Source: Candidatus Bathyarchaeota archaeon (GTDB taxonomy: Archaea; Thermoproteota; Bathyarchaeia; Bathyarchaeales; Bathycorpusculaceae). From it: a DNA stretch of 64,000 nucleotides. Below the pieces are notes generated by a model. It ran no database searches and was not told where the DNA came from. It saw only the letters and a program-made list of their open reading frames with translations. Position 1 is the stretch's first letter, and each line of letters begins with the position of its first letter. Shown here piece after piece: positions 2,394 through 58,521 of this stretch. Both the position numbers and the translations under genes were made by a program. The stretch spans positions 23,854 through 87,853 of the forward strand of contig JAOZHX010000025.1 of the NCBI GenBank assembly GCA_026014665.1. Reading direction: 5' to 3'.

Positions 2394-2533
2394 TGTGTTT
2401 CCTCTGCCTTGTTAGGAATGCACGTTTAGGTTTTAAGCCTTACCCAACGACAAAAATCGACGATATGTCAGAAGCGTTCAACGAAGAAACCAGATAAAAA
2501 AATGACACATCTAAAATCAAAAATCCATTTTTG

Positions 2534-2648
2534 CGTTTTCCACTTGTTTTGTCCTTTCATGTTATTCCACATGCTTCTGCGGGGTTTTTCCATTTAGGCC
2601 TTCATGTGGTCGTTTGTAGTTGTGGTGGATTAAGATAGCCCATCCTGA
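2534..2648 (-). mobile_element. Degenerate transposase C-terminal remnant (DDE integrase/IS6-like archaeal type)
   Basis: Minus strand reads IHHNYKRPHEGLNGKT(P)AEACGI(T.)KGQNKWKT across two frameshifts, matching the HNxxRPHxxLxGxTPAEA end of DDE transposases. Confidence 0.65.
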
Positions 2649-2709
2649 GACTTTTTGCCATTAAAGCCTTTTTTCATGGCACTTTAATAGACGCTTGCGT
2701 CATGATTTC

Positions 2710-3321
2710 TTATGGAAATCTTAATTGTCTTCCCCATTGGTTTTGCCAGGGAGTAATCGTTCTAGTGGTCTTATACTGTACTTGCCTAACTCCCAGCGCT
2801 AGCTCAGCGAATTCTTTTATGGTTGTGTACCGGAAATCCCATGTTGGCGTACCATACCGCAACCCGCTGCACATGGTGTCGGCGTAGATGTAGAGTTTGT
2901 TTCCTCTGTAGTCGAAAGCGGCTTGGTTGGGTTCGCCGTATTTCGGCTCAGAGAGCACTTTAAACGGCCAGAGCTTGCATGCTTCAGGCTTCATGTTTTG
3001 CAGTCCACAAAAATAGTTGCGTGAGGTGTTGCAAAGAAAAGCGCAGCTGCCGTCGGTTGCGCGTTTTATGTAGAATCGATCTAAGCCTGCCACGGTGGTT
3101 TCAACGCCGAAGGTTTTGGTGATTTTAAGCCACTCAGGAAAGCTTAAGACTACACTGTAGAGTTTACAGCAGTAACCACAGGCTTTGCAACGCCAATCAG
3201 CCACGTTCTGCCACGCAACAAACTGCACGAATCCATCACAACCCAGAAAGAACTCAGAGTAGAAAATTAATTTTTTCCCCAGAAGGCTAAGAGAGATAGT
3301 CTTTTTTGGCGATTTTAGCAA
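2710..3321 (-). CDS. YkgJ/FliB-like cysteine-cluster protein (true start probably ~90 nt downstream of the called start)
   Basis: WRCKACGYCC, CAFL...C...KPEACKLWPF pattern. Confidence 0.8.
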   Translation of the reverse strand: MLKSPKKTISLSLLGKKLIFYSEFFLGCDGFVQFVAWQNVADWRCKACGYCCKLYSVVLSFPEWLKITKTFGVETTVAGLDRFYIKRATDGSCAFLCNTSRNYFCGLQNMKPEACKLWPFKVLSEPKYGEPNQAAFDYRGNKLYIYADTMCSGLRYGTPTWDFRYTTIKEFAELALGVRQVQYKTTRTITPWQNQWGRQLRFP

Positions 3322-4289: not shown

Positions 4290-7166
4290 CTACTTGAAAC
4301 GTTTACTCAACGCCTTACGTTCAGCTTCCAAAACCAACTCGTAAAACTTATCGGACAACCCGGACTCCTTCTCCAAAACCCCAGCAGCATCCGCAGCAGA
4401 AACCCGCCGTGCACTCAACGCCACCGCTGCAGTTTTTCCGTACTTTTCAATCAATTCAGCCGTTTGCTTAGCGTGAACCCGCATTTTTTCTTCATCCTTC
4501 GCCAAGTGCTCGCCGTGTTTCTCCAGCAGCGGCAAAGCTTTTTCTTCCTCAACTTTGAGTAAGCCAATGGCTAAAGAGCCGCATCTGGGGCATTTGGGCT
4601 TGTCTGGGAGGTCTTTGATGCGTATCATCTCGACGTAGTCCCAGCAATGGGTACAAACGAAGGTTAGGGTTTCGTTGAGTAACCGTGCCTTGGCGGATTC
4701 AACTAGGACGGCGCGCATCTGCTCGGGCGGAATCAAATCTGTCTTCATGCTGACCCGTTCAATGCCGACTCGAGCCACGGGCGTCGCGTTGCCGCGTGTC
4801 AAAACTACCTGCAGCCTCACGTCGCCGTCTCGCAGGCGACCAAGCACCATGACCAAGCCGTCAGCGTCGAGGTCTTTAGTGAACACTTCCTTAAGTCCTT
4901 CCTCGTAGATGGGCGTGCCCTCGAAGCTTGAAATCAGCTTCTGCAAGCTAACGTTGCTGAAATCAGCCCATTTCTTGAGGGCGCCAAAGCGGCGTGCCAC
5001 TTGGATGACTCGGCGTTTGAACAAGCCTGTCTTCACCGTGGATTGCGTGAGCGTGGCTCGTATGGCTTGCTCATTCATGTCTTTTACCTCTTTTAGGACT
5101 TCAACCAGCCGCTCCGCGTTCATGGCGCCCATGGTCTGCACGAAGATGCGGTAGGGGTCATGCTGCACGACTATGCCGCGTCCCAGTTTGTCAGAGAGCA
5201 CCTGTCCCAGAAACTGAGCCAACGCTCTGTTGATTAGCGAGCCAAAATTCGAGTGCACAATAACAAACTCGCCCCAGTCCTCAACCACGATGCGATGGGG
5301 AGTGGGAACTGGAAAGCCGCTTTGCACCTGCTCCACCGTCTCCGCCAACGCATGCATGATGGTTTCGGCGTCGGATGGGTAGCGTTCAGAAAGCATCTGG
5401 CTGATTTGCTGGGGTGAAGCGCCTCTTTGGGCTTGCTCTTCAACGAAGCCGCGGATTTCAGCGACTTCCTGTGTTACCTCGTAGGGAACTGGGATTTCCT
5501 CGCCTATCCAGCTGGGAATCGAACCGCTCGGGTCCTCCACTGGGCGCACGTAAACCTTGTCTTCGGTCACGTGGATTATTTGCCATGGGCTGCCTCGGAT
5601 GATGAATTTTGTGCCTGGCTTGCCGTACTCCGCCATGAAGGCTTCGTCCAACACGCCTATGGATGAATCCGCGGATTGGTCGATGACCAAGAACTGTTTT
5701 TCTTCTGGAATCATGGATAGGTTGTCAAAGTAGTATTCAAAGAGCGCCTTGGTCCGCTGCGGCTTGAGAACGACTTTGTCTTCGAAGGATGCCCAAGCCA
5801 ACCGTGGAAACCGTTGATGCATGTACCGTATGACTTTTTCTACGTCGTCAAGCGTTAGGTTCTCAAACGGCGCAGCGTTGCGTGCCAAATCCAAGATTTC
5901 CTCAAAAGCTAGGCGTCTGTTCTTGAGCAGCAGCCCCGCAACTTGGTGGGTCAACACGTCGTAGGGTTTATCTGGAATCGAAACCGCTTCAAGTTTTTCA
6001 GTTAAGGCTCTTCTTGCGATAACCAACGCTTCCAACGTGTCGTCGGAGTCCATGCCGATGATTACGCCTTCCGAAACGTGCCCGTACGTGTGTCCTGCCC
6101 TGCCGACGCGTTGGACAAGCCGGGAAACCTGCCTTGGGCTCATGTATTGGATGACAAGGTCGATGTGCCCAACGTCGATGCCGAGTTCTAAGCTGCTGGT
6201 GGCGATTAAGCCTTTGAGTGCGCCGCGTTTGAGTCCTGTTTCCGCCGCTATGCGTGAGGGCTTAGCTAGGGAGCCGTGGTGGATTGAAACTGGGAAGTCT
6301 ACGTCCCAGACTTTGAAGCGTGAAGCTAAAACTTCCGAGATTGAGCGGGTGTTGGTGAAGAGGAGGACGGATTTGCGTTTGCTCATGTAGTCGCGGATAA
6401 TACGCAGTCTCGCCGCAACTTCTGGGTGAGTGTAGATTTTCGAGGCGAAACTTACGTCTTCTTCGGTCGGTTTTGGATAAATGACTTGCAGCTTAATTAT
6501 TTTGGCGACTGGAACCCTGATGATTTCCACCGCACGCTTATCGCCGACTAGGAACTGTGCGACTTTCTCTGGGCTGCCGACCGTCGCGGATAAACCAACC
6601 ATCTGGAAATCCTTGCCGATTAACCCGCGGACACGCTCCAGTGCCAGCGATAGTTGGCTGCCCCGCTTGCTGTCTGCCAACTCATGCACTTCATCGATTA
6701 TGACCCAGCGTAGGCTCTGTAGGTGCTGACGCAAAAGCCAACCTGACAATATAGCCTGCAGGGTTTCAGGCGTCGTTATCAGGATGTCTGGGGGGCTTTG
6801 GGATTGGCGGGTTCGCTCTTTCTGTTCGGTGTCGCCGTGCCTAACCGCCAGCTTAATGTCCAAGTTGTTGCACCACCACTGAAGTCGCTCAAGCAAGTCA
6901 CGGTTAAGCGCCCGAAGCGGCGTTATGTAGAGAACTTTTATGCCTGGGGTTTTGGGCTGCTGAAGGAGCATGCTGAGGATTGGCAGAAAAGCAGCTTCCG
7001 TCTTGCCTGTTGCAGTCGGCGAAATCAACAGGATGTTTTTGCCTTCGATTACCTTGGGAATTGTTTTCTCTTGAGGTTCCGTCGGCTTAGAGAATCCTCT
7101 CTGTTCAACGAGCCTTCGTACTGGCTTGACGAGGAAATTAAAAGCGGAGTCAGAATCTGCCGTCAG
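4290..7166 (-). CDS. lhr: Lhr-family SF2 DEAD/DEAH helicase with C-terminal Zn ribbon; probable CTG start at 7166
   Basis: PTATGKT, DEVHE, LSAT, HHGSL, ATSSLELGID, QRVGRAGH, C-terminal CTHC/CPRC. The frame stays open upstream of the called TTG (7028) and encodes the Q-motif region (AFNFL...GFSKPTEPQ). Confidence 0.93.
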   Translation of the reverse strand: MTADSDSAFNFLVKPVRRLVEQRGFSKPTEPQEKTIPKVIEGKNILLISPTATGKTEAAFLPILSMLLQQPKTPGIKVLYITPLRALNRDLLERLQWWCNNLDIKLAVRHGDTEQKERTRQSQSPPDILITTPETLQAILSGWLLRQHLQSLRWVIIDEVHELADSKRGSQLSLALERVRGLIGKDFQMVGLSATVGSPEKVAQFLVGDKRAVEIIRVPVAKIIKLQVIYPKPTEEDVSFASKIYTHPEVAARLRIIRDYMSKRKSVLLFTNTRSISEVLASRFKVWDVDFPVSIHHGSLAKPSRIAAETGLKRGALKGLIATSSLELGIDVGHIDLVIQYMSPRQVSRLVQRVGRAGHTYGHVSEGVIIGMDSDDTLEALVIARRALTEKLEAVSIPDKPYDVLTHQVAGLLLKNRRLAFEEILDLARNAAPFENLTLDDVEKVIRYMHQRFPRLAWASFEDKVVLKPQRTKALFEYYFDNLSMIPEEKQFLVIDQSADSSIGVLDEAFMAEYGKPGTKFIIRGSPWQIIHVTEDKVYVRPVEDPSGSIPSWIGEEIPVPYEVTQEVAEIRGFVEEQAQRGASPQQISQMLSERYPSDAETIMHALAETVEQVQSGFPVPTPHRIVVEDWGEFVIVHSNFGSLINRALAQFLGQVLSDKLGRGIVVQHDPYRIFVQTMGAMNAERLVEVLKEVKDMNEQAIRATLTQSTVKTGLFKRRVIQVARRFGALKKWADFSNVSLQKLISSFEGTPIYEEGLKEVFTKDLDADGLVMVLGRLRDGDVRLQVVLTRGNATPVARVGIERVSMKTDLIPPEQMRAVLVESAKARLLNETLTFVCTHCWDYVEMIRIKDLPDKPKCPRCGSLAIGLLKVEEEKALPLLEKHGEHLAKDEEKMRVHAKQTAELIEKYGKTAAVALSARRVSAADAAGVLEKESGLSDKFYELVLEAERKALSKRFK

Positions 7167-9903: not shown

Positions 9904-10499
9904 AGTTTAAGCATTCGCCTACCAACCGCAACAGCCCAAATCGAAACAGCAAACCCAGACGCAAACTCAGGAATAGCCACGTTGGGAACATAACTAATGG
10001 TTAACTGCAAAACCCAAACAGACGCCGAAAAAAACCCGACCGCCAAAGAAAGAACCGCCAAAGCCCGTTTACCTGCATAGAAGAAGCCAGCAGTCAAGAC
10101 CAATAAAGCCATAGTTGCCAAAGCGAAGAACGCCACAGACACCAAGTAATGTATAGGTTTAAAATCTTCATTAAAAACACCGATAGCCATCAAAGCAACA
10201 GAAGCACACGCAAACATCAAAGCTCCAACACGCCCAACCAAATTCTTAGAAAAATAATTCCACAACCCAAACACCGAGAAAATAAAGGCTAACAACCCAC
10301 CGACAAATAACCCAAAATTAAACAAGTAACCTGTCAAACCCGAAACAACCCCTAAATCACTTAAAGCATTATGAACCCAACTAAACGCTGGATAAGACGC
10401 AATAGCAATTAAAATGCAAATGAAAGCCGCAACAGGCGCCACCACGCCAGCCACTCCCCCAACCTTCAACCAAACCTCACCCTTAAACAACATACACAA
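9900..10499 (-). CDS. DUF998 family membrane protein
   Basis: FSWVHNALSDLG motif, GVFNED...H, multiple TM helices. Confidence 0.85.
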   Translation of the reverse strand: MCMLFKGEVWLKVGGVAGVVAPVAAFICILIAIASYPAFSWVHNALSDLGVVSGLTGYLFNFGLFVGGLLAFIFSVFGLWNYFSKNLVGRVGALMFACASVALMAIGVFNEDFKPIHYLVSVAFFALATMALLVLTAGFFYAGKRALAVLSLAVGFFSASVWVLQLTISYVPNVAIPEFASGFAVSIWAVAVGRRMLKL

Positions 10500-10546
10500 A
10501 CCCTAAAGCAAATTTAGCAACCGCTGGCTTTAAAAATTTCCATCAA

Positions 10547-11662
10547 TCAACCGATAAACCGCCTCAAATTCCCCAGCAAACGCAACTTATCCCTCTCACC
10601 CACTTTCGCCGCCTCAACAGACTTCCTGAGAATCTCCACAGATTCATCCATAGCTTTCCGATCCACCGGAAAAGGCACCCCATCCTTACCTCCATAAGCA
10701 AAACTAAATCTAACAGGATCCTCCCAGCTTGGAGCTTCACCATAGATGAGTTCGGCAACCAAGGCAAGTCCCCGCACGGTTGCTGGACCAACGCCTTTTA
10801 GGCTGAGAAGCTCTTCATAGTTGTTTGGTTGAAATTCATACATGCGGCTGAGTGTGTCCCAGTTGATGTTTCTGGGCATGTCAAGGGTCACTTGGGGTTG
10901 ACGTTGCAACCTGCTTGGTTGAGGAAAATATTCTTGGAGCGAAGTTTGATTTTTAGGTTTCGCCAAGGATTGGATGAGGTTGTTAAGTTTTTTGGGTGGT
11001 TCTTTGGAAAGGTCAACGGAAACTTTTCGAGCATTCTCGCTTGCGACAGCTGTCATGTTTAAAGCCTTTTGGCGCTTTATCCCAACAATGCCGTTATGCG
11101 GTTCCACAATGAAGTTATGAACGTTTTCAGAGAACCAATGGTAACGTCTTGCTGTTCGGTCTTCTTCATTCATACCTTGCTGTATAACTGCCCATTTACC
11201 GTCTTGCGTGAGCAAAAAAGCATGATGATAAAGCTGATATCCTGCTTGAAGGGCATTGTTATCAACTTTAGCGACTATACGGCTAGCATAAATAAGTTGA
11301 TCGATGGTTTGCTTAGAAAACTGGAAGGTCTCAGCAGCCGCCTGGATGTCCGCTGGAGTCTTTTTGCTGGTTTTGCCCTTGCCACCACAAACCACAATAC
11401 CGTGCTCTTGGGAAGTCAAAGCGGTTTTGAGGATACCTGTGACAACGGTGGTTACACCACTGCTATGCCAATCATACCCCAAGACACAGCCGAACGCCTG
11501 AAACCAAAAGGGATCGCTAAGACGTTCAATAAACGCTGTAGTGCCATATTCTTCAATCATGACGTTAGCGATTTCGCGAGCAAGGTTACGCATTCTCACA
11601 GTTAACCAGGATGGTGCTTTGCCGCCATGCAGCGGCAGATTCGCAGTGCCTGTTCGAAACAT
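10547..11662 (-). CDS. DUF763 family protein
   Basis: GTANLPLHGGKAPSWL, DWHSSGVTT, FAYGGKDGVPFPVD family motifs; HhH-like GVGPAT. Confidence 0.9.
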   Translation of the reverse strand: MFRTGTANLPLHGGKAPSWLTVRMRNLAREIANVMIEEYGTTAFIERLSDPFWFQAFGCVLGYDWHSSGVTTVVTGILKTALTSQEHGIVVCGGKGKTSKKTPADIQAAAETFQFSKQTIDQLIYASRIVAKVDNNALQAGYQLYHHAFLLTQDGKWAVIQQGMNEEDRTARRYHWFSENVHNFIVEPHNGIVGIKRQKALNMTAVASENARKVSVDLSKEPPKKLNNLIQSLAKPKNQTSLQEYFPQPSRLQRQPQVTLDMPRNINWDTLSRMYEFQPNNYEELLSLKGVGPATVRGLALVAELIYGEAPSWEDPVRFSFAYGGKDGVPFPVDRKAMDESVEILRKSVEAAKVGERDKLRLLGNLRRFIG

Positions 11663-11923: not shown

Positions 11924-12001
11924 GGGCGGGTAGATCAGCCTGGTACGATCGCCACGTTGGCATCGTGGAGGCCGCGGGTTCAAATCCCGCCCCGTCCACC
12001 A
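11924..12001 (+). tRNA. tRNA-Ala(GGC), intronless, CCA encoded
   Basis: Acceptor GGGCGGG/CCCGTCC with the G3:U70 alanine determinant; anticodon arm CCACG-TTGGCAT-CGTGG; T-loop GGTTCAAATCC; ACCA end. Confidence 0.96.
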
Positions 12002-29034: not shown

Positions 29035-30729
29035 TCATTTGGCGGCTGCCTTCGCACGAATCTGAGCCAATGTCTCATCAAGTTTTGTTTCGTCAGTTTC
29101 GACTTTATGGAAGAGAGGTGTTGGCTTAGCAATGTGGTGTCCGCCCTCAAGCGGCTTTAATGCCTCCTGCCAGTTTGTTTCATGCACGTTTCCTTCAAGT
29201 TGCAATGTGCCCCACAGTTGCTGCGCTGTCTGCGGCATAAATGGCTCTGAAACAACGGCGATAGCTTTCACAACTTGCGCTGCCACATAGAAGATTGTTC
29301 CTGCTTTCTCTTTGTCAGTTTTCATGAGGTTCCAAGGTTCTTTGGTGTTTAGATATTGGTTGCCGATGCGACTTATCGAGATGAGTGTGTTTGCGGCGGA
29401 TTGCAGCCATGAGCCTTCGATTTCTTTGGCGGCTTGCGCCACTCTTTCTTTAACTGCTTCCAAGATGGCTTCATCATCTCTATCGAGTTTAGTTGGAGCT
29501 GGGATTTGACCTCCAAATTTGCTTGTTATGAAAGATAATGTACGATGGATGAAGTTGCCAAAGGTGTCGTTTAAATCGGCGTTGATTTTTTCGCTGAACG
29601 CTGTCCAAGTGAAGTTTGTATCTTTGCTTTCGGGGCGTGTGGCGATTAGGAAGAAGCGCCAGTAATCCACCGGAAACATTTCGAGAGCTTCGTCTATCCA
29701 GATGCCGACCCGTTGGCTTTTGGAAGCTTTTTGCCCGCCGAACTGCAGAAATTCTGTAGCTGAAACGTTCCATGGCAGGTTGTAGTCTTCGCCGGAAGCC
29801 AACAGGAGCGCGGGCAGCATTATAGTGTGGAATGGGATGTTGTCTTTGCCGACGAAGTAGAGTGTCTTGGCTTGCTTATTAAACCAGAATTCACGCCATT
29901 TCTCCGGTTGACCGATGTGTTGGCATTGCTCAATGGTTGCAGAAACATATCCTAACACGGCGTCTACCCAAACATAGATGGTTTTGCCTTCAGCACCCTC
30001 AAATGGTGCAGGAATCCCCCACTCAACATCGCGGGTGACGGCTCTCGGTTTTAAGCCTTCCTTTATCCAGTTTAAGCTGAAATTCTTCACGTTGGCAGGC
30101 AATTGTTCGTTGTTTTTGAGGTACTGTGTTATTGGATCTGCGAGTTTGGAGAGGTCAAAGTACCAGTGGCGAGTCGTTTTGACCGTGGGTTTAGTTTTGC
30201 AGATAGTGCAGTAAGGTTCTACCAGTAAAGTTGGCTCCAGCAACCTGCCACAAATGTCGCATTGGTCGCCCCGCGCTTTCTCACAGCCGCAATAGGGGCA
30301 TTTGCCCTCTACGAAACGGTCTGGCAAGAAGCGTTGATCATGCTCACAATAGAGCATCTGGGTGTCTTGAGCGAAGATGTACCCGTTTTTCTGAATTTCT
30401 AAAAGCGTTTTCTGCACGAATTCTTTATGAATCGGACTCTCAGTGCTTGTATAATTATCAAAGGAAGATTCCCATTTGCGGAACAGCTCCGCCACACGGG
30501 CATGGTTGCGATCAGTGAGCTCTTTAGGTGTGATGCCTTGTTTTATGGCTTCTACCTCGATGGGCGTGCCATGTGTGTCGGAGCCGCTGACCAATAGAGT
30601 TTCGTCCCCTTTGAGGCGGTAGTATCGGGCGGTCACGTCAGCAGATAAGACAGAGCCTACTAGGTTCCCAAGGTGGGGCGTCACGTTGATGTAGGGCCAA
30701 GCGGAGGTTACTAGAATTTTTTCAGGCAA
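29035..30729 (-). CDS. metG: Methionyl-tRNA synthetase (without C-terminal Trbp domain)
   Basis: PHLGN (HIGH), SGSDTHG, Zn knuckle CPYC/CDIC, YVWVDA, GKDNIPFH, KASKS. Confidence 0.96.
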   Translation of the reverse strand: MPEKILVTSAWPYINVTPHLGNLVGSVLSADVTARYYRLKGDETLLVSGSDTHGTPIEVEAIKQGITPKELTDRNHARVAELFRKWESSFDNYTSTESPIHKEFVQKTLLEIQKNGYIFAQDTQMLYCEHDQRFLPDRFVEGKCPYCGCEKARGDQCDICGRLLEPTLLVEPYCTICKTKPTVKTTRHWYFDLSKLADPITQYLKNNEQLPANVKNFSLNWIKEGLKPRAVTRDVEWGIPAPFEGAEGKTIYVWVDAVLGYVSATIEQCQHIGQPEKWREFWFNKQAKTLYFVGKDNIPFHTIMLPALLLASGEDYNLPWNVSATEFLQFGGQKASKSQRVGIWIDEALEMFPVDYWRFFLIATRPESKDTNFTWTAFSEKINADLNDTFGNFIHRTLSFITSKFGGQIPAPTKLDRDDEAILEAVKERVAQAAKEIEGSWLQSAANTLISISRIGNQYLNTKEPWNLMKTDKEKAGTIFYVAAQVVKAIAVVSEPFMPQTAQQLWGTLQLEGNVHETNWQEALKPLEGGHHIAKPTPLFHKVETDETKLDETLAQIRAKAAAK

Positions 30730-31180: not shown

Positions 31181-31315
31181 AACCTGCGATCAATTTGATT
31201 ATAGCACAATTTTTCGTTAGGGCTTAAGCGCTGGAACTGTGTAAACTATGAAGTGCAAGCCTGAAACATTTAAAGGCATCTTTCAACCACTAACACTATG
31301 CAAAGGTGGTTTTTA

Positions 31316-31554
31316 TGGCAGACCAGAAAAAGGTAACTCGGCAAGAACTGCAAGAAAACAACGGTAAAAACGGGAAACCCGCCTACATAGCCTATAAAGG
31401 CAAAGTCTACGATGTCTCGGATAGCAGCTTTTGGATGGAAGGTGACCACATGGGTATGCATGAAGCGGGCAAAGACCTCACTGACGAGTTAGAGATGGCT
31501 CCGCATCGAGAAGAGAATTTTCAGCGCGTCAAGTTAGTGGGCGACCTTGTTTAG
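31316..31554 (+). CDS. Cytochrome b5-like heme/steroid-binding domain protein
   Basis: YIAYKGKVYDVS, HMGMHEAGKDLT, APH heme-ligand pattern. Confidence 0.9.
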
Positions 31555-32785
31555 AAGATAAATTGCAATACACTGTCTATTTGGCGTAAGCCACTCAAAA
31601 GATTTTTTACGTCTTCAGCGCCAAGGGTGCGACGCATTTCATGAAGATTAATTATTGTTTTCTGTACACTATCAAAGGCATTCTTGAGGTCTAAATCATC
31701 ATCCATGTAACGTTCAAAGTCGGCGGTAATTTTTCTGGTGAGAGCACGGTGGTTTTGCGACTTGTCGGGTGCTTCCATGTTTTGCAGGTCTGCAACCATG
31801 CTCTTGATTTCATCCAGTTTACGGCAGGTTTGAGCAAATTTGTCGAAGGTGAAGTTTAGTTTTTTCCTGTAATGCCTATAACTGAGGAAAAACCTGAGTT
31901 GTTCACCGCTAAAGCCTCTCGATAAAACATCGTTAACATAATATACATTACCGAGACTTTTGGACATCTTCTTGCCACCTACCAGCAGATGTGCGCCATG
32001 CAGCCAAAACCATGAAAACTGCTGTCCTGAAACTGCTTCCGCTATAGCAAGGGTGTAATCATGGTGCCTAACTAGGTTGTCCACACCACCACAACTGACA
32101 TCGATTGTAAACCCAAATTGTTTAGTTACGATTGCAGCGTCCTGTATGTTCCAAGCTGGTCGTCCAGTGCCAATCGCTGTTTCATAGCATACATCATCGG
32201 GTTGGCATCCATGCCAAAGCACAAAATCGCCCTTGTTCCATGGTGTGCCGGGGTAGGTATCTTTGTGGAAACGGCGCTTTTTTTGGGCCATTTGCTCATG
32301 TCGAGGTGAGCAAGTTTTCCAAAGCCTTGGAATTTTAACGGGTCAAAATAGATGTTTTTGGCGCCTTTATAGTCATACCTATATGCATATTCAGTCTCGA
32401 TAAGCTTGGAAATGAGGCTTGCAGCTTGATCCACAGCGTTTGAAGCTCTAATGGGGTAATCAGGCTTTTTTATTCTTAATGTTTCAAGGTCTTTGAAGAA
32501 AACTGCTTCATTTTTGCGTGTAAGTTCTTCGAGTGGAATTTTCTCTTTTTTGGCTTGTGCAACGGCTTTGTCTTCCACATCGGTTAGCGTCATTACCCGC
32601 CTGACCTGGTAGCCTTTGTATTCTAGGTAGCGTTGGAGAATGTCTTCGAAGAGGAAAGTGCGGTAGTTGCCTATGTGCGCTGGCTGGTACGTGGAGGGAC
32701 CGCATGTGTACATCTTAACTTGCATGTCGTTGTTGGGTTGAAAAGGCTGAGTTTTACTTGTTAACGTGTTGTAAAGTTTTAACAT
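31551..32785 (-). pseudogene. Cysteinyl-tRNA-synthetase-like paralog (~411 aa when joined), frameshifted at the A7 run (plus-strand T 32278-32284)
   Basis: MLKLYNTL, YTCGPS, HIGN, TDVEDK, DFVLW, GRPAW, KMSKS and a DALR-like region; one extra A joins ORFs 32126-32860 and 31551-32291 as WPKKKRRF. Confidence 0.85.
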
Positions 32786-32798
32786 GTGTGCTTCCTCG

Positions 32799-33278
32799 TC
32801 AAGGTGAGGTTTGCTGTTCTTCCTGCTGAAGCTGCTTGAGCACTTTTTTTGCCTCTTCAACGTGTCTTTGAGCTTGAGTTTGCGAGCTAAATATGTATCT
32901 AACTATAGCTTTCTTGTCGATGATGTAAGTTACTCTGCCTGGTATTATTCCCATGGTTGAAGGCACCCCATAGAGGCTTCGAACTTTGTTTTCTTGGTCG
33001 CTTAGGAGGATAAAGGGCAAACCGTAGTGGGTGGCAAAGGATTTATGCGATGCTACACTTTGTCCGCTAATGCCTATGACTTCGGCATCCAAATCTGTCA
33101 GTTCTTGGTAGCTGTCCCGGAAGGCGCACGCTTCCTTGGTGCAGCCAGGTGATTCGTCTTTGGGATAGAAGTAGAGGACTATGTTTTTTTTGCCGAAGTA
33201 TTCGGAAAGCGTTACGTTGTCGCCCATTTGTGAGGGAAGCGTAAAATCTGGTGCTAAATCGCCCACGCCGACAGCCAA
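32799..33278 (-). CDS. bcp: Peroxiredoxin, BCP/PrxQ family
   Basis: APDFTL, YFYPKDESPGCTKEACAFRD (PxxxTxxC-like, CxxxxC). Confidence 0.93.
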   Translation of the reverse strand: MAVGVGDLAPDFTLPSQMGDNVTLSEYFGKKNIVLYFYPKDESPGCTKEACAFRDSYQELTDLDAEVIGISGQSVASHKSFATHYGLPFILLSDQENKVRSLYGVPSTMGIIPGRVTYIIDKKAIVRYIFSSQTQAQRHVEEAKKVLKQLQQEEQQTSP

Positions 33279-43507: not shown

Positions 43508-44158
43508 ATGTCAGAACGATTCGCGAAAAAATGGGAGCAAAAAAGAGAAGAACAAACCACGATAAACGCCATCCGAGACACCATCCAACCTCCACCCCCT
43601 CTCAAACCCCGCCTCGAATTAGCCACAAGAAAACTCGACATGCAAATCAACAAACTCGACCAAGCCAACGAACGCTTCACACAAAAAGACCGCGCCCTCT
43701 TCAACAAGCTCGTCAACGCCTACACTCAACATGACCAAGCTCACGCAAACATATACGCCACTGAACTTGCCGAAATCAGAAAAATGAGCAAGCTCATAAT
43801 GAACGCACGTCTAGCACTTGACCAAGTCTCCCTGCGCATAAAGACGGTCAGCGAACTAGGCGACGTCGTCGCCACTCTAGGACCCTGCATAGGCGTACTT
43901 CGCAGTGTCAGCAACGGGCTAGGCGGAGTGTTGCCTGAAGCCGAAGGTGAATTGGGTGACATAGGCAATCTGCTTAGCGGATTGATGTTTGAAGCAGGTG
44001 CATCCAGCGGTATGTCGCTAAACTTTGAAAACGTTAACGAAGATGCTGCAAAAATTCTAGCTGAAGCAGCTACAGTTGCAGAACAAAGAGTAAGCGCAAA
44101 CTTCCCAGACCTGCCTCCTGGAATGCCGACCAATGCGACCAACAAAGCGCAAACCTGA
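43508..44158 (+). CDS. ESCRT-III/Snf7-family protein (CdvB-like)
   Basis: Snf7 core (ELAEIRKM...LALDQVSLRIKT), C-terminal A..IL.EA and FPDLP Vps4-interaction-like motif. Confidence 0.88.
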   Translation: MSERFAKKWEQKREEQTTINAIRDTIQPPPPLKPRLELATRKLDMQINKLDQANERFTQKDRALFNKLVNAYTQHDQAHANIYATELAEIRKMSKLIMNARLALDQVSLRIKTVSELGDVVATLGPCIGVLRSVSNGLGGVLPEAEGELGDIGNLLSGLMFEAGASSGMSLNFENVNEDAAKILAEAATVAEQRVSANFPDLPPGMPTNATNKAQT

Positions 44159-52253: not shown

Positions 52254-53855
52254 ATGAACAAACCAGATGAGCACGACGGACTTAAAATTCCGTGCATTCC
52301 TTGCACAATGTCTACTCAACACCCTGACAATGCCAACGTTCCAGAGTGGAGCGAAGGTGAAGTAATCAACGGAAACACCGAAGTCTATGAAGCCTACTAC
52401 TCATACAAAACTCTGGGTTGCCAAGAAGTCATGTGGGACTCAGAAGGCAAAGACGTGGACACCCGAGTGGTCAGAAAGCTTTTGCAGAAGCACTGGGACT
52501 TCTTTGCAGAGAATGTCCTCGGAGAAGACGTCCGATTAACTTATCGCATTCCTAACCCAAGAATTGAAGGGGCAGAAAAAAAATACCTTGTCGAAACTCT
52601 CCAAAACATCCCAGTTGCGTACGATGTTGCTACGCTCGCATATAAGCGGGAAGTCACACCTATTTTTGAAGTTATTTTGCCTTTTTCCACTGAAGCCAAA
52701 GAGCTTATTATGCTTCTCAATTACTACAAAAAAGCCATTGTAGAGGATGAAAATGAACTATTATATGAATCCACAAAAACAAAAGATTGGATAGGAGATT
52801 TCAAACCTAAAAACATCTCCATTATCCCTCTGGTCGAAGACTTCGAAAGCATAATGCACGTTGACAAAATAGTAACACCCTACATACAAGCTGTTAAGCC
52901 TGATCATCTACGAGTTTTCATAGCAAGGTCTGACCCCGCATTAAACTACGGTTTAATTTCAGCGGTTCTCCTCTCAAAAATAGCGCTTAGCAAACTCAAA
53001 ACAGTTGAAAAAGAACAACAAACAAACATTTACCCCATTCTGGGAGTCGGCTCAAAACCTTTTCGAGGTCACCTCTCGCCTGAAAACATCGACGGTTTCC
53101 TCCAGGAATACAGGGGTGTCTCAACAGTAACAGTCCAATCAGCCTTCAGATATGACTACCCAACCCCAAAAGTCCAAGAAAGTATACAAACCCTCAACCA
53201 AAGGCTTCCAAATGGGCGACCCCAAGACATTTCTGTTGAAGAAGAAAAGATTCTGCTAAACATTCTCAAAAAATGCAGAATAGATTATGAAAAACAAATC
53301 GAAAACATGGCCCCGTTCATAAACAGCGTCGCATCATACGTTCCCCAAAGAAGAGCACGTAAACTCCACATTGGACTCTTCGGGTATAGCCGATGCGTTG
53401 TTGGAGTATGCTTGCCAAGGGCAATTGCCTTCTCAGCTGCCCTCTACAGCGTTGGAATGCCTCCGGAATTTTTAGGCATGCAATCCCTTGCTAAACTAAG
53501 CAGTGAAGAATGGTCTCAGCTTGAGAAGTATTACGTAAAATTAAAAGAGGACCTATCCTTAGCTGGCGAATACGTTTCTTGGCAAAACATAGAAATGCTA
53601 AAAGAAATGAGTCACGCCACTTCAAAACGCGTTGGAATGAGCGAAGGAAAACTCGGCGATTCTCTCTCTAACTTGCAGGAAGATTTGCGAGCAGTAGAAA
53701 GTTGCCTAAACATAAAATTGGGGGCAAAAGGAATTTCTCAACGAAGACATGAAAACTTCACCAATAACTTCTTGCTATCCTTCATTCAAAACGAGGATGC
53801 TGAAGCCAAGAAAGCCTTGATTGAATCAGCAAAACTAAGAAAATGCTTGGGTTAA
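52254..53855 (+). CDS. ppcA: Archaeal-type phosphoenolpyruvate carboxylase
   Basis: MSTQHPDNA, MWDSEGK, RSDPALNYG, GSKPFRG, TVQSAFRYD, LPRAIAF. Confidence 0.95.
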   Translation: MNKPDEHDGLKIPCIPCTMSTQHPDNANVPEWSEGEVINGNTEVYEAYYSYKTLGCQEVMWDSEGKDVDTRVVRKLLQKHWDFFAENVLGEDVRLTYRIPNPRIEGAEKKYLVETLQNIPVAYDVATLAYKREVTPIFEVILPFSTEAKELIMLLNYYKKAIVEDENELLYESTKTKDWIGDFKPKNISIIPLVEDFESIMHVDKIVTPYIQAVKPDHLRVFIARSDPALNYGLISAVLLSKIALSKLKTVEKEQQTNIYPILGVGSKPFRGHLSPENIDGFLQEYRGVSTVTVQSAFRYDYPTPKVQESIQTLNQRLPNGRPQDISVEEEKILLNILKKCRIDYEKQIENMAPFINSVASYVPQRRARKLHIGLFGYSRCVVGVCLPRAIAFSAALYSVGMPPEFLGMQSLAKLSSEEWSQLEKYYVKLKEDLSLAGEYVSWQNIEMLKEMSHATSKRVGMSEGKLGDSLSNLQEDLRAVESCLNIKLGAKGISQRRHENFTNNFLLSFIQNEDAEAKKALIESAKLRKCLG

Positions 53856-53927: not shown

Positions 53928-54794
53928 TTAAGCTACTTTCGATGCAGCTTTCTCCAATGCACCACTCAAGCTACTCATTTCTGCGTTTGCTTTGCGGATG
54001 AGGTCTGCAATGGTTTCTTTAGTGGGTATGGCTGCGCTGACCGAGAGGGCGACCGCTTTTTGGTGGGCTTGCTGCAGAAGCGGCTTGATGGTTTCTTTGG
54101 TTGCATAACCAATGCTGAGGGCTAATGCGAAGGCTTCTTGGTTGCTGGCTTCAACGTCTTTTTTGGTTGCGGCGATGTCGATTTTGAGTTGATCGCCAGT
54201 AATCATTAAGCCGTTATCGAAGACTGCACGCATGGAAATACCCAACTCGACTGCTTTTATGCCAAGTTTGGAGAGGACGCCTGCTAAGCGTTCATTTATG
54301 ACTTCGCCTTTGCGAACCACCAAGGTGTCCTTGCTGATCCAGACGCTACCTGATTCAATGCGTGTTGGCAAACCGACGGCGTTTAGTTGGCTGATCACTG
54401 GACCTGGGGGTTGACCTGTGTTGCTGGCGGGGATGACGACGTCTTCAGCTGCTATGTCGCCTGCTTTGGCGGTGGTTTTGACTTTGCCGCGTTCCAGCAT
54501 CAAGGCAAGTTTGAAGGGGTTTAGGTCTGTGAATAGAAAAACGTTTGATCCTTCTAAGTATGCCTCGAGTTTCTTGAGTTCAGCTTGATTGAGTTCTTCG
54601 ATTGCGATTTTTATGAGTGTGTTTTTGAGAACTCGTAAGTAGACTTTGCCCTTCATAGTTTTTTTGAGTTCTTGAAGTTGGGAAGCTCGAACCTTTTGCA
54701 GGCTTGCGATGCCGACGGATTTGTATTCTTTCAATATGTCTTTGATTGCTTTTACTTCGCTTGATTTTTCTTCTAACACTTGTTGGGACGGCAT
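53928..54794 (-). CDS. rplP0: 50S ribosomal protein L10/P0
   Basis: KNTLIKIA, FLFTDLNPF, NTGQPPGP, AGVLSKLGI; ATG 54794. Confidence 0.96.
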   Translation of the reverse strand: MPSQQVLEEKSSEVKAIKDILKEYKSVGIASLQKVRASQLQELKKTMKGKVYLRVLKNTLIKIAIEELNQAELKKLEAYLEGSNVFLFTDLNPFKLALMLERGKVKTTAKAGDIAAEDVVIPASNTGQPPGPVISQLNAVGLPTRIESGSVWISKDTLVVRKGEVINERLAGVLSKLGIKAVELGISMRAVFDNGLMITGDQLKIDIAATKKDVEASNQEAFALALSIGYATKETIKPLLQQAHQKAVALSVSAAIPTKETIADLIRKANAEMSSLSGALEKAASKVA

Positions 54795-54807
54795 GTACTT
54801 CAAACTC

Positions 54808-55458
54808 TTAAGGTTTAATTTTAACGGGTTCGCCCATAGACGTCTTGATAAAAGCATACTTTACGTTTTTTAGCCCACGCTTTAGTTTGCCATCAAGAAC
54901 ACGCAAGACCGCCATGGTGTTGTCTACGAGTTCTTCATCCTTCATCTGTTGAGAACCGACTGGAACCTGGATGATGGGTTGGTTACGCATGCGGACAACT
55001 ACGGTTTTGCGGTGTTTAGAGATTAGGGCGTTAATATCTGCGGTTGGTGGAACGGGAATAGGCATTTTTCCCCTAGGACCTAAAACTGGACCCAGAATTC
55101 TACCGACCAGCGGCATCAGTGGCGCCTCGGAAATGAATATATCGTAGTCGGTGGCGAGTTTCCGCAGGTCTTTCTTTTTGCCGTTTAACGCATCTAGGTC
55201 TGTGCGTTCGATGACTCGATCTGCTTGAGCGTTTTTTGCTTTCAGGGCAAATTCTCCTGAAGCAATAACGCAGATGCGGTTAGGCTTACCGGTTGCGTGC
55301 GGAAGTTCAACTACCTCTTGAATTTTACCTTCAGGTGCTTTCATGTCGATTTCTGTAATGTCTAGTATGAGGTCGACAGTCTGGTTGAATTTTTTCTCAC
55401 CAGCTTTTTCCTTTGCCTGTTTTATCGCTTCAGATATGGTTTTGTTGTCTAGGGGCAT
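54808..55458 (-). CDS. rpl1: 50S ribosomal protein L1
   Basis: KFNQTVDL, LGPVLGPRGKMP, KTSMGEP. Confidence 0.97.
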   Translation of the reverse strand: MPLDNKTISEAIKQAKEKAGEKKFNQTVDLILDITEIDMKAPEGKIQEVVELPHATGKPNRICVIASGEFALKAKNAQADRVIERTDLDALNGKKKDLRKLATDYDIFISEAPLMPLVGRILGPVLGPRGKMPIPVPPTADINALISKHRKTVVVRMRNQPIIQVPVGSQQMKDEELVDNTMAVLRVLDGKLKRGLKNVKYAFIKTSMGEPVKIKP

Positions 55459-55516
55459 TTTTAAGCCTCGTGCCAATAGGGATTTAGAAACCCATTATAA
55501 AAATATTCGCCCATCA

Positions 55517-56005
55517 TTAGTCGCTACCAAATAGGCTATCATAGTTACCAGCGTCTATTTCTGTTTGGACTTGGCGGGGGTCTTTGCCTTCAACGGTGAC
55601 GCCGAGGCTAACGCAGGTGCCGAGCAACTCTTTTGTTGCCTTCTTTATGGTGGGTGATAAGAGCTGGGGAGCTTTAATTTTTGCTATGCGGATAATTTGA
55701 TCCATGGATAAGTTGCCGACTTTAACAGAGTTTGGCGTTCCTGAACCTTTCTCCACTTTTAGTTCAGCAACGATTAATGCAGAAGCTGTTGGGGTGCCTA
55801 CAGTTACTTCGAAGGTTTTATCTTCTTGGTCAACGCTGATTTTGACTGGAACTTTCATTCCAGCGTATTCTTTTGTGACTTCGTTGATTTTGTTGACAAT
55901 AGCCATTATGTTGACGCCTAATGGACCCAAAGCTGGACCCAAAGGTGGACCTGCATTGGCTTGTCCGCCGCTGACTATTAATTCTACAACTTTCTTTTCG
56001 GGCAT
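55517..56005 (-). CDS. rpl11: 50S ribosomal protein L11
   Basis: GGQANAGPPLGPALGPLG, GTCVSLGV. Confidence 0.97.
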   Translation of the reverse strand: MPEKKVVELIVSGGQANAGPPLGPALGPLGVNIMAIVNKINEVTKEYAGMKVPVKISVDQEDKTFEVTVGTPTASALIVAELKVEKGSGTPNSVKVGNLSMDQIIRIAKIKAPQLLSPTIKKATKELLGTCVSLGVTVEGKDPRQVQTEIDAGNYDSLFGSD

Positions 56006-56021
56006 TTTATGGTTTTCTCCT

Positions 56022-56507
56022 TTATGCTTTTGCTTTTTCAACTAGTTTTACATAGTCTGAATGTACTGTGATGGGCAAAGTAAATGTTGCTTCAAGCAAT
56101 TCTAAGGTAACTTCGCCTTTTGATTTGTCGAGTCTGGTGATTTTTGCACGCATACCCTTGAAAGGCCCGCCGGTAATTTCAACCACGTCGTCCTCGTTGA
56201 GGTCTTCCATGACGGGTTTGCGCACGATGTAGCGTTCGATTTCGCTGAAGTTTATAAGTCCAGGAATACGAGAGCGCACATGCCTGACTCCAGCGATGGC
56301 TTCTTCCACGAGGTGTGGGCCGTCGGCTTCTATGAAAACATAGCCTTTGAGAGTGTCGGGGACGAGAAGAGCTTTTATGGGAATATGGGCCATTTCGACT
56401 TTGGATGCGATTAGCCGTGCTACGTTGCGTTCTTGCCCCGTAGTTGTTTTAACTGCAAAAATCTTCACTTCGGAAAGCTCTTCTTTTTTATCCATAACCT
56501 GTTTCAC
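56022..56507 (-). CDS. spt5: Transcription elongation factor Spt5/NusG
   Basis: TTTGQERNVA, KGYVFIEA, KOW motif ITGGPFKG. Confidence 0.96.
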   Translation of the reverse strand: MKQVMDKKEELSEVKIFAVKTTTGQERNVARLIASKVEMAHIPIKALLVPDTLKGYVFIEADGPHLVEEAIAGVRHVRSRIPGLINFSEIERYIVRKPVMEDLNEDDVVEITGGPFKGMRAKITRLDKSKGEVTLELLEATFTLPITVHSDYVKLVEKAKA

Positions 56508-57234: not shown

Positions 57235-58521
57235 TTAGGGGTAAAACCTTCTTGTAGTTCTGGGGAATGGGATAGCGTCTATGATGTTGTCTAAGTCCAG
57301 CATCCAAACCAAGAGCCTCTCCAAACCCATGCCGAAGCCAACGTGTGGGACCGTGCCATAGCGGCGAAGGTCCAGATACCATTCGTAATCTTCGGGTTTT
57401 AAGCCCTGTTCCCTCATACGTTGAATTAAAATGTCTTTGTTTTCTTCTCTTGCACCGCCAGTGCTGATTTCGCCTATGCGGGGCACCATCATATCCACGG
57501 ACATGGCGATTTCTGGGTGTTCCCTGTAGGTTTTGCAGTAGAACGCTTTAATGGCAGTGGGGTAATCGTAGACGAAGAAGGGTTTGCCGAATTTATCAGC
57601 TAAAACTTTCTCGTCTTCATAGCCTAAGTCTGAACCCCAAGTTAATGCTGGGTTCGCAGGTTTGAGCTGCTCGATGGCTTCTTGGTAAGTTATCCGTGGA
57701 AATGGTGTTTGGACAGCTTTGAGTTTTTCGATGTCAGCTCCTAATTCCTTGAACTCTTTTTGGCAGGTGTTGGCGATAGTTTGGCAAACATGTGTCATTA
57801 ATCCTTCTTCAAATTTCATAAGATCATCCATGTCAGCGAAAGGCCACTCACCTTCAATATGCCAGTACTCTGTGAGGTGGCGGATGGTACGGCTCTTTTC
57901 CGCACGGAAAGAAGGCGCGATGCAATAAACGTTTTCCAAAGAGTAGATTAGAATTTCAAGATAGAGCTGGCTGCTTTGAGTCAAATAGAGATCTTGGTCA
58001 AAATACTTTAAGCCGAACAGTGTTGACCCGCCCTCTACTGCAGCTGAGATGAACATGGGCGGAGATACCTCGGTATAATTTTGCTGCTTGAAATATTTGC
58101 GGGTTGCCTCTAAAACTTCGGCACGAACCTTCATGACTAAATTCATTTTACGGCTTCTCAACCAGAGATGTCGCATATCACGGATGAATTCTTCACTTTT
58201 GTCCTTAGCGATGGGGAAAGTTTCTGCTAAACCAATGATGTTAACTAATTCAGAGTTGATTTCATAGCCGCCTGGGGCACGTTTATCTTCTTTGACTGTG
58301 CCTTCTAAGGAAAGGGAGGATTCTATGGTTAGTTTTTGGGCTTCGTTCCATGCAGGGCTAGTTTTTTTGACCGTGCATTGGATTACGCCGGTTGAATCGC
58401 GGATAAGCAGGAAAATGAGTTCTTTGCTTTCACGTTTGCGGTAAACCCATCCGCGCACGGCGATTTTTTGGTCTGTACATTTGCCATCTAAGATTTGGCT
58501 TATCTTTGTTATAGGAGCCAT
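57235..58521 (-). CDS. asnS: Asparaginyl-tRNA synthetase
   Basis: OB domain GWVYRKR, YLTQSSQLYLE, FRAEKS...HLTEYWHIE, GTVPHVGFGMGLERL. Confidence 0.92.
   Translation of the reverse strand: MAPITKISQILDGKCTDQKIAVRGWVYRKRESKELIFLLIRDSTGVIQCTVKKTSPAWNEAQKLTIESSLSLEGTVKEDKRAPGGYEINSELVNIIGLAETFPIAKDKSEEFIRDMRHLWLRSRKMNLVMKVRAEVLEATRKYFKQQNYTEVSPPMFISAAVEGGSTLFGLKYFDQDLYLTQSSQLYLEILIYSLENVYCIAPSFRAEKSRTIRHLTEYWHIEGEWPFADMDDLMKFEEGLMTHVCQTIANTCQKEFKELGADIEKLKAVQTPFPRITYQEAIEQLKPANPALTWGSDLGYEDEKVLADKFGKPFFVYDYPTAIKAFYCKTYREHPEIAMSVDMMVPRIGEISTGGAREENKDILIQRMREQGLKPEDYEWYLDLRRYGTVPHVGFGMGLERLLVWMLDLDNIIDAIPFPRTTRRFYP

Follow-up and report, generated by a model that had tools for sequence, protein, structure and literature searches.

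The stretch of DNA analysed here, referred to throughout as the window, comprises 64,000 nucleotides from a Candidatus Bathyarchaeota archaeon (contig JAOZHX010000025.1, positions 23,854 to 87,853). On its minus strand, at positions 31551..32785, it carries a gene for a class I ligase that resembles cysteinyl-tRNA synthetase (CysRS). Judged by sequence comparison, the encoded protein belongs to a distinct, conserved and so far undescribed family derived from CysRS, with a remodelled metal-binding pocket and no C-terminal anticodon-binding domain. The same comparisons indicate that the family gene is probably a paralogue rather than the housekeeping CysRS. The reading that we tentatively prefer is a paralogous ligase with a function of its own and a non-canonical acceptor, a small molecule being placed slightly ahead of a tRNA.

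The gene starts with an ATG at 32785 and stops at 31551-31553, boundaries that were obtained from the listing of open reading frames (ORFs) and six-frame translation. With one A restored in a poly-A run (see below), the joined protein is 411 residues long and matches the catalytic core of CysRS (Pfam PF01406) with an E-value of 4.7e-77. Its N-terminal part (residues 1-169; 32279..32785, minus strand) holds the first half of the Rossmann fold, in which C28 (32702-32704), T68 and the HIGN motif at residues 37-40 (32666-32677) lie, and then enters the CP domain. The C-terminal part (residues 170-411 and the stop codon; 31551..32278, minus strand) continues with the remainder of the CP loop, the second Rossmann half with KMSKS at residues 273-277 (31956-31970), the stem-contact fold and a four-helix bundle. 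With HIGN, KMSKS and the GG-D ribose motif all in place, the adenylate-forming machinery is complete.

Aligning the joined protein with E. coli CysRS (pdb 1li5) reveals which parts of the pocket are kept and which are changed. C28, W205 (W212 in the window protein), H234 (H241) and H235 (H242) are retained, as are the signature motifs, HIGH as HIGN and KMSKS unaltered. The changes are H206 to N213, E208 to Q215, C209 to D216, E236 to D243, N237 to Y244 and E238 to T245, so that GRPAWNIQDA stands for GRPGWHIECS and VRHHDYT for FPHHENE. The WNIQD segment (WHIEC in CysRS) covers residues 212-216 (32139..32153, minus strand) and places D216 where the zinc ligand C209 would be. RHHDYT (PHHENE in CysRS) covers residues 240-245 (32052..32069, minus strand); it holds the retained zinc-ligand histidine H241 and the family-specific R240, D243 and Y244, and T245 occupies the site of E238, where family members differ. 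The alignment bears out the initial annotation, made from the sequence of the window, in its description of intact HIGN and KMSKS motifs beside the WNIQD and VRHHDYT replacements; residue by residue it was also correct that C28 and H234 are kept among the four E. coli zinc ligands, with Asp at C209 and Thr at E238.

The joined protein spans residues 1-391 of the 461 of E. coli CysRS, leaving unmatched the final ~66, which form the α/β anticodon-binding domain. C-terminal tails in the family are 0-13 residues long, mostly 0-8, compared with 51-99 in most tail-bearing canonical representatives. A length of ~411 residues without an anticodon domain had been proposed from the outset. This holds for the α/β domain, which is the only part missing, but the stem-contact fold and the helical bundle, also a tRNA-binding part of CysRS, are still present. 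The closest intact relative was modelled with AlphaFold2 (pLDDT 92.9, pTM 0.92), and the C-terminal end of the model consists of four helices. Confidence is lower (77-87) in a family-specific basic loop of the CP domain, PKKKRRFHKDTYPGTPWN, at residues 167-184 (32235..32287, minus strand), which spans the frameshift site. This loop tentatively lies at or near the CP1 stretch that has been tied to recognition of the first acceptor-stem base pair (PMC5389517).

The altered pocket is not peculiar to the window. More than 120 intact homologues of ~411 residues, with 67-76% identity, are present in a large protein collection, and all of the motifs are invariant in those examined. A search of 50%-identity representatives returned full-length clusters at 39-56% identity that carry the same signature, and divergent members, down to ~40% identity, retain WN[IV]QD, RHHDY and KDTYPG..WN. 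Without exception, ~94 full-length loci from GTDB genomes and JGI metagenomes have WN[IVLA]QD and [RM]HHDY. A profile of the most divergent members gave a further 116 proteins, all with W[NS].[QE]D and RHHDY; WN[IVLA]QD itself is found in 113 of the 116 database relatives, the remainder being the single-residue variants WNVED (two proteins) and WSIQD (one). The initial annotation had named lack of conservation of NIQD and HHDY in intact homologues as a refutation of its reading; over the ~94 loci and 116 relatives both are conserved. The position of E238 varies across the ~94 loci, with T, N, V, I, S or A. As the motifs are invariant in intact archaeal and bacterial homologues, the altered pocket is a conserved and selected state and not the product of decay. 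A reading by decay alone is ruled out by this invariance together with the full set of invariant positions in the window copy.

A comparison of alignment columns separates the positions that the family has in common with canonical CysRS (C28, G29, H37, G39, N40, T68, D69, W205, G226, G227, D229, H234, H235 and KMSKS) from those that have switched (T31S, T115S, Y152F, H206N, E208Q, C209D, P233R, E236D, N237Y, T276Y and G392Q). The switched positions are fixed in the family and are 70-99% fixed to another residue in the canonical enzymes. Among 122 canonical representatives the frequency of Asn at H206 and of Gln at E208 is 0.00, and that of Asp at C209 is 0.03. In addition the family has an inserted, invariant loop in the CP domain with P167, Lys/Arg, D176-x-Y178-P-G180 and W183-N184. 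The switches gather around the metal and side-chain (Zn/Cys) pocket, the signature of a functional change that selection maintains.

The family also stands apart as a whole. Phylogeny had been suggested as a check, and in a neighbour-joining tree the 12 family representatives lie together on one long branch, separate from 124 canonical CysRS. The window protein scores 316 bits against TIGR00435 (cysS), where the cutoff is 340, matching profile positions 1-399 of 466, and 184.4 bits against TIGR03447 (MshC), where the cutoff is 485.1. NCBIfam has no dedicated model for the family. The labels in use are 'class I tRNA ligase family protein' (PGAP/NCBI) and cysteinyl-tRNA synthetase (JGI). Literature searches found no description of the family, the nearest being those of MshC and CysRS*.

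As written in the window the gene consists of two overlapping ORFs, 32126..32860 and 31551..32291 (both minus strand, from six-frame translation), split by a -1 frame change within a run of seven A residues (T7 on the plus strand, 32278-32284). The window reads TGG CCC AAA AAA AGC GCC, where the intact form is CCC AAA AAA AAG CGC CGT. The family sequence PKKKRR requires A8 at this site, so the A7 corresponds to a single-base homopolymer deletion. Across it 19 intact homologues of 411 residues read WPKKKRRFHKDTYPGTPWN, the peptide of the relatives there being WPKKKRRFHK, and the window gene is therefore short of one A from an A8 run. Most relatives interrupt the A run with AAG codons; locus L011 keeps an intact A8. 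The deletion is the sole lesion in the gene.

It could be argued that the gene is a genuine pseudogene, recently inactivated in its genome and at most expressed at a low level through slippage on the A run. The frameshift is present in the sequence as given, and the family gene is the only frameshifted gene found in the window, which contains 34 other 7-nt and seven 8-nt A/T runs. If tRNA-Lys slipped by -1 on this run, exactly PKKKRR would be regained, as read from the sequence. Against this, the site as read in the zero frame (C AAA AAA A) does not match the canonical slippery heptamer X XXY YYZ, and relatives do not share the A run. There is no second lesion, and in a family alignment that excludes the window copy, this copy retains 53/53 invariant and 52/53 near-invariant positions across both halves. 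Frame breaks also occur at different sites of the family gene in at least three other assemblies (L043, L065 and L084, the last in a T8 run), which is typical of assembly errors, and six-frame translations hint at further breaks near the 3′ ends of the gene in L044 and L067. In these loci, where the family gene lies at ~10001-11240, the sequences come from 'MFD' metagenome-assembled genomes (MAGs; L043, L065, L044 and L067) or from a 'binchicken' co-assembly (L084). Breaks at such varied sites point to homopolymer or assembly errors and not to repeated pseudogenization. A settled pseudogene or old decay is less likely in the window than a homopolymer assembly error or a very recent mutation, and we regard inactivation in the living genome as unlikely.

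CysRS (PF01406, TIGR00435; pdb 1li5/1u0b and 8qhp) is the best match to the window protein in both sequence and fold, with 30% identity. The model gives TM-scores of 0.89 to archaeal CysRS (8qhp), 0.84-0.86 to E. coli CysRS and 0.83-0.84 to MshC. Shared with CysRS are the HIGH-type and KMSKS motifs, C28, G29, T68, W205, H234, H235, the stem-contact fold and the helical bundle. Unlike CysRS, the family has Asp at C209, a non-conserved E238, the fixed changes H206N, E208Q, P233R, E236D, N237Y and Y152F, a basic CP loop that is invariant and contains an inserted YPG, no α/β anticodon domain and a score below the cutoff. G29, T68 and W205, which hold the backbone and β-carbon of cysteine in CysRS and MshC, are all kept in the family.

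MshC, the L-cysteine:GlcN-Ins ligase of mycothiol biosynthesis (TIGR03447; pdb 3c8z and 8hfm), is likewise derived from CysRS, has ~410 residues and lacks an anticodon domain. The likeness extends to the pocket, where M. smegmatis MshC has HHEYS and the family HHDY[T/N/S] in place of the canonical HHENE, so that Tyr at 237 and Ser/Thr at 238 are shared. Tail-less CysRS with canonical ligands (for instance in Micrarchaeia) keep HHENE, unlike the family and MshC. The analogy with MshC that had been drawn from length and architecture is in this way strengthened by one specific point, the HH-acid-Tyr segment. There are clear differences. M. smegmatis MshC keeps WHVECS, including the zinc-ligand Cys, and FP before HH, whereas the family does not; C209D with H206N, E208Q and P233R are changes unique to the family. 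The zinc site of MshC consists of two Cys and one His, the second Cys being Asp in the family, and identity between MshC and the window protein is only 22-25%. MshC is actinobacterial, the members of the present family come instead from Bathyarchaeia, Asgard MAGs and anaerobic bacteria, and no mycothiol-pathway genes were seen near the family gene. Since MshC activates cysteine and has Ser at 238, the loss of E238 is no evidence against cysteine; the Thr at this position, which is moreover variable in the family, cannot carry the weight that the initial annotation gave it. As the family shares the two traits that distinguish MshC, the missing anticodon domain and the HH-acid-Tyr-Ser/Thr segment, the balance is tilted slightly towards a non-tRNA acceptor.

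Two further paralogues of class I synthetases without an anticodon-binding domain are relevant. CysRS* of Desulfobacterales is a second CysRS encoded beside selC* and selB*. A tRNA of its own is its proposed substrate, although the native enzyme was inactive in E. coli, and the CP1 stretch has been linked to recognition of the first acceptor-stem base pair (PMC5389517). Like the family, CysRS* lacks the anticodon-binding domain; it occurs as a second copy in deltaproteobacteria, as the family probably does, and an altered CP1 stretch starting with Pro may be a further likeness. It is, however, coupled to the selC* tRNA and selB*, which the family gene is not, and it is described with CP1 changes only and no change of zinc ligands, a comparison made by description and not by sequence (PMC5389517). 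The corresponding stretch is PKKK in the family and 'PTVS' in D. biacutus CysRS*, an equivalence that rests on E. coli numbering and is tentative. GluQRS (YadB) is a truncated GluRS paralogue that acts on the queuosine of tRNA-Asp and keeps its amino-acid specificity (PMC9437257). It shares with the family the descent from a class I synthetase and the loss of the anticodon-binding domain, and has gained a new acceptor specificity; it differs in its parent synthetase, and no link of the family to a modified base was seen. Together with the tail-less, canonical-ligand CysRS of Micrarchaeia, CysRS* (PMC5389517) removes the missing anticodon domain as a sign of tRNA independence, which is how it had been interpreted at first.

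The homologue searches also recovered other departures from the canonical CysRS arrangement. Four CysRS-like proteins of 455-462 residues (P0188, P0241, P0265 and P0268) possess an anticodon domain and read WHIEDT, with Asp at C209 and with H206, E208 and E238 kept; on this sequence evidence Asp may be tolerated at the C209 ligand position in tRNA-type CysRS. Seven homologues of 408-417 residues (P0129, P0138, P0149, P0156, P0163, P0189 and P0246) are without the C-terminal anticodon domain and mostly keep WHIECS/HHENE, P0189 and P0246 being without the Trp-His. P0129, annotated as cysteine--tRNA ligase, belongs to a Micrarchaeia MAG, and CysRS without the domain may be the working enzyme in some DPANN archaea. 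Intermediate pockets occur in the tail-less P0169 (405 residues, Micrarchaeota, 'class I tRNA ligase family protein'), with WNVQCA and NHHENT, and P0247 (407 residues), with WHIQDT and HHSAQI; in these the same site may have been remodelled independently. Three CysRS of canonical type are extended at the N-terminus by 300-400 residues (P0130, 768 residues; P0136, 858; P0207, 783).

The family is widely distributed. A scan of GTDB species representatives matched at least 599 stretches. Among the matches listed, 578 code for relatives of the query; since canonical CysRS may also be caught by one of the two patterns used, neither figure gives the size of the family. Of the 80 best loci nearly all are from Bathyarchaeia, with one Hodarchaeota and one Promethearchaeota MAG, and the gene is present in the complete genomes CP170178.1 (subgroup Bathy-6), OY969560.1, OY970286.1, CP070683.1 and CP070649.1 and on the 2.06-Mb JGI contig Ga0374055_0000003. 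Three contigs filed as Candidatus Acidoferrum (L051), Methanocella sp. (L054) and Candidatus Sulfotelmatobacter (L073) have a Bathyarchaeia gene order, with MetRS or bcp genes 75-90% identical to those of the window, and by these sequences are probably mis-binned. Bacterial members are found on a contig with a penicillin-binding protein, RecO, GrpE and ExbBD (P0126), on a 1.63-Mb contig carrying flagellar genes (P0408) and on a 1.99-Mb contig that also has a 16S rRNA gene of bacterial type (P0399). In L180, from a JGI contig of 1.99 Mb, the bacterial 16S rRNA gene is complete (1195-2731, minus strand), is situated ~5 kb upstream of the family member and would identify the host. NCBI entries add Desulfoferrobacter suflitae (protein P0470; GCA_022603395.1), which is an isolate, and Desulforhabdus, Nitrospirota and Spirochaetales, which are represented by MAGs. 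Bacteria such as these are expected to own an ordinary cysS, and a paralogue with its own role is therefore the most economical reading of the family.

The cysteine-coding route of the archaeal hosts bears on the same question. SepRS is reported to be common in Bathyarchaeota (PMC5424206, PMC8762117), in surveys that do not specifically cover the Bathy-6 soil and peat lineages; such widespread SepRS (PMC5424206) would leave a CysRS relative free to change. The first ~750 genes (about the first quarter) in the annotation table of a complete Bathy-6 genome contain no CysRS or SepRS entry (PMC11697101, Table S3). Within ±10 kb of ~170 family loci no second CysRS or SepRS is encoded, as expected at that range. 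None of the best 120 SepRS matches listed (≥57% identity to the marine-lineage SepRS of Bathyarchaeota B63, PMC5424206) could be placed on a contig with the family gene, a set too narrow to inform on co-occurrence. One SepRS (P0310) was noted on subsurface contigs in its usual Translin-SepRS-EndoV context.

In the window the CysRS-like gene follows a bcp-type peroxiredoxin gene (AhpC/TSA, 7.8e-38; 32799-33278, minus strand) that ends 13 nt before its ATG, and the two are probably co-transcribed. A small cytochrome b5-like protein (Cyt-b5, 6.2e-11; 31306-31554, plus strand) is encoded convergently and overlaps the 3′ end by 4 nt. Both arrangements, as first described, are confirmed by the ORF listing and Pfam. 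They form part of a collinear block in which orf123, methyltransferase, α/β hydrolase and bcp precede the CysRS-like gene and cyt b5, zinc-ribbon protein, MetRS and PHP protein follow it. Only a Bathy-6-type clade has this block, in relatives down to ~55% identity, with bcp missing in several, and no part of it is found in more divergent members; in a different Bathyarchaeia-type clade a DinB polymerase is encoded directly downstream instead. Among 150 immediate neighbours, drawn from 45 sequence clusters, the commonest families are Cyt-b5 (10), zinc ribbon (9), AhpC/TSA (7) and α/β hydrolases (5), with three or fewer in each of the others. All four come from the one block, and there is no universal partner gene. 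General functional coupling to bcp and cytochrome b5 was considered and is ruled out, since the pair belongs to the collinear block of a single clade. The link to these two genes drawn in the initial annotation is weakened, and the family is not specifically archaeal.

Other antioxidant genes were seen beside the family gene in independent lineages. An Fe/Mn superoxide dismutase gene (L117:5917-6516, plus strand) overlaps its start by 4 nt. The family genes of D. suflitae and of a related metagenome contig (L153) are each preceded, at a distance of ~43 nt, by a fusion of an α/β hydrolase with OsmC (L153:5731-6951 and L097:6735-7958, both plus strand), and a rubrerythrin/EncFtn-like gene is located downstream in another locus (L141:7166-7552, plus strand). 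In another clade ferritin and nitroreductase genes are close by. The adjoining, probably co-transcribed antioxidant gene thus differs by lineage: bcp in Bathy-6, the OsmC fusion, the Fe/Mn superoxide dismutase or the rubrerythrin-like gene. No tRNA gene recurs within 4 kb of the family loci, no EF-Tu/SelB family is among the listed neighbour families, and no mshA-, mshB- or mshD-like partner is conserved in the neighbourhoods looked at. At Rfam gathering thresholds no riboswitch or leader was detected upstream of the bacterial members or in the window.

The remaining housekeeping content of the window is ordinary for an archaeon (53928-56507, 57235-58521 and 29035-30729, all minus strand; 11924-12001, plus strand). 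It includes an Spt5/NusG-L11-L1-L10 operon, a class II synthetase of the Asp/Asn/Lys type, MetRS two genes downstream of the CysRS-like gene, and tRNA-Ala(GGC) as the sole tRNA. An archaeal-type PEP carboxylase (PF14010, 1e-186) is encoded at 52254-53855 (plus strand), a weak Snf7/ESCRT-III-like protein under the Pfam cutoff at 43508-44158 (plus strand), and an Lhr-type helicase at 4290-7028 (minus strand), whose ORF begins inside the DEAD domain at profile position 20.

The invariant Cys-Asp-His triad of the family sits where CysRS and MshC bind zinc. In the mechanism that we propose a metal would still be bound at this site, which would select cysteine or a close analogue for formation of the aminoacyl-AMP. 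The recipient of the aminoacyl group would approach beneath the CP loop specific to the family, with no role for an anticodon in its selection, the PKKKRRFHKDTYPG loop forming a putative acceptor pocket. An MshC-like transfer to the amine or hydroxyl of a small molecule is favoured, possibly in thiol or oxidative-stress metabolism, and transfer to a tRNA recognized only at its acceptor stem would be a close second. That the enzyme is a repurposed paralogue, as initially annotated, agrees with the separate clade, the scores below both the CysRS and the MshC cutoffs and the presence in bacteria, and it is the most likely reading. A redox-buffer role is a lead and not a finding. A new class I aminoacyl ligase activity, either as a tRNA-acting enzyme with a switched amino acid or metal or as the cysteine-adding step of an undiscovered low-molecular-weight thiol common to Bathyarchaeia and anaerobic bacteria, seems rather unlikely.

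Several observations weigh against a paralogue with a small-molecule acceptor. The retained stem-contact fold and helical bundle, with an invariant loop rich in Lys/Arg near the acceptor-stem site, would suit a tRNA acceptor, and GluQRS and CysRS*, as analogues, are both linked to tRNA (PMC9437257, PMC5389517). The Cys-Asp-His site could still bind zinc and thiolate, the enzyme then being simply a variant CysRS. No conserved biosynthetic partner (glycosyltransferase, deacetylase or acetyltransferase) adjoins the gene, which stands alone in varied contexts like housekeeping aminoacyl-tRNA synthetase (aaRS) genes, and the pattern of antioxidant neighbours is anecdotal, without a control set. The most substantial of the alternatives is a genuine but divergent CysRS that charges tRNA-Cys without reading the anticodon through a C-terminal domain. 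Its metal site would be an adaptation of strict anaerobes, for instance to oxidants or to a shortage of zinc in sulfidic settings, and Bathyarchaeia may even have no other direct CysRS. All of the cysteine-backbone contacts and two zinc ligands are retained, Asp can ligate zinc and is found at this position in the tail-bearing WHIEDT proteins, and MshC shows that cysteine can be activated without E238. In Micrarchaeia there are tail-less CysRS that have the canonical ligands and are annotated as cysS, and the basic loop is at or near an acceptor-stem contact site (PMC5389517). The gene is very widespread in Bathyarchaeia, JGI labels it cysteinyl-tRNA synthetase, and co-expression with peroxidase or superoxide dismutase genes would suit a stress isoform. 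On the other hand, the family also occurs in bacteria that should already own cysS, and it keeps none of seven pocket positions whose invariance in canonical CysRS across the domains of life is 79-98%. Its score is under the curated cysS cutoff, its HHDY resembles MshC and not the HHENE of tail-less tRNA-type CysRS, and it has diverged faster than the neighbouring MetRS (62-76% against 74-93% identity in the same genome pairs). On balance a variant CysRS seems rather unlikely, though it has to be taken seriously.

A specialized paralogue acting on tRNA, either on a modified base as GluQRS does or on one unusual tRNA recognized by its acceptor stem as proposed for CysRS*, is less probable still. 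Both precedents are class I paralogues that lack the anticodon-binding domain and act, or are proposed to act, on tRNA (PMC9437257, PMC5389517). The family has Pro near CP1, as in the 'PTVS' of D. biacutus CysRS* (PMC5389517), at a position where its frequency is 0.00 in the 122 canonical representatives, the equivalence again being tentative, and the invariant Lys/Arg-rich loop is at or near that CP1 position. However, in ~170 loci the family gene is accompanied neither by a tRNA gene nor by genes for SelB-like or other translation factors, and the zinc ligands of CysRS* are described as unchanged, with alterations in CP1 only (PMC5389517). We consider it similarly improbable that a different amino acid is activated (Ser, Thr, Asp or O-phosphoserine), with the harder Cys-Asp-His site and the newly acquired Arg240, Tyr244, Asn213 and Gln215 selecting an oxygen-bearing or acidic side chain. 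Such a switch would fit the replacement of a thiolate ligand by a carboxylate, the loss of two acidic residues (E208Q and E238 to T, N or others) and the gain of an invariant Arg beside the ligand His. It is opposed by W205, G29 and T68, which shape the small cysteine pocket and are unchanged, and by MshC, which uses cysteine despite Tyr at 237 and Ser at 238.

Aminoacyl-tRNA synthetase-derived paralogues as such are already known, in MshC, CysRS* and GluQRS; what is new here is a widespread family of this kind. Its main hosts, the Bathyarchaeia, rank among the most abundant archaea where sediments and soils are anoxic (PMC11697101, PMC10989822). Should the protein prove not to be a real CysRS, cysteine coding in these genomes uses another route, and reconstructions that count the gene as cysS are wrong. 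If it is, both the four-ligand zinc site and the anticodon domain would be dispensable across a large part of the archaea. An MshC-like ligase would imply an unknown thiol or other aminoacylated metabolite in strict anaerobes, the redox buffers of which are poorly known. The presence of the family in a cultured bacterium, Desulfoferrobacter suflitae, makes its function experimentally addressable.

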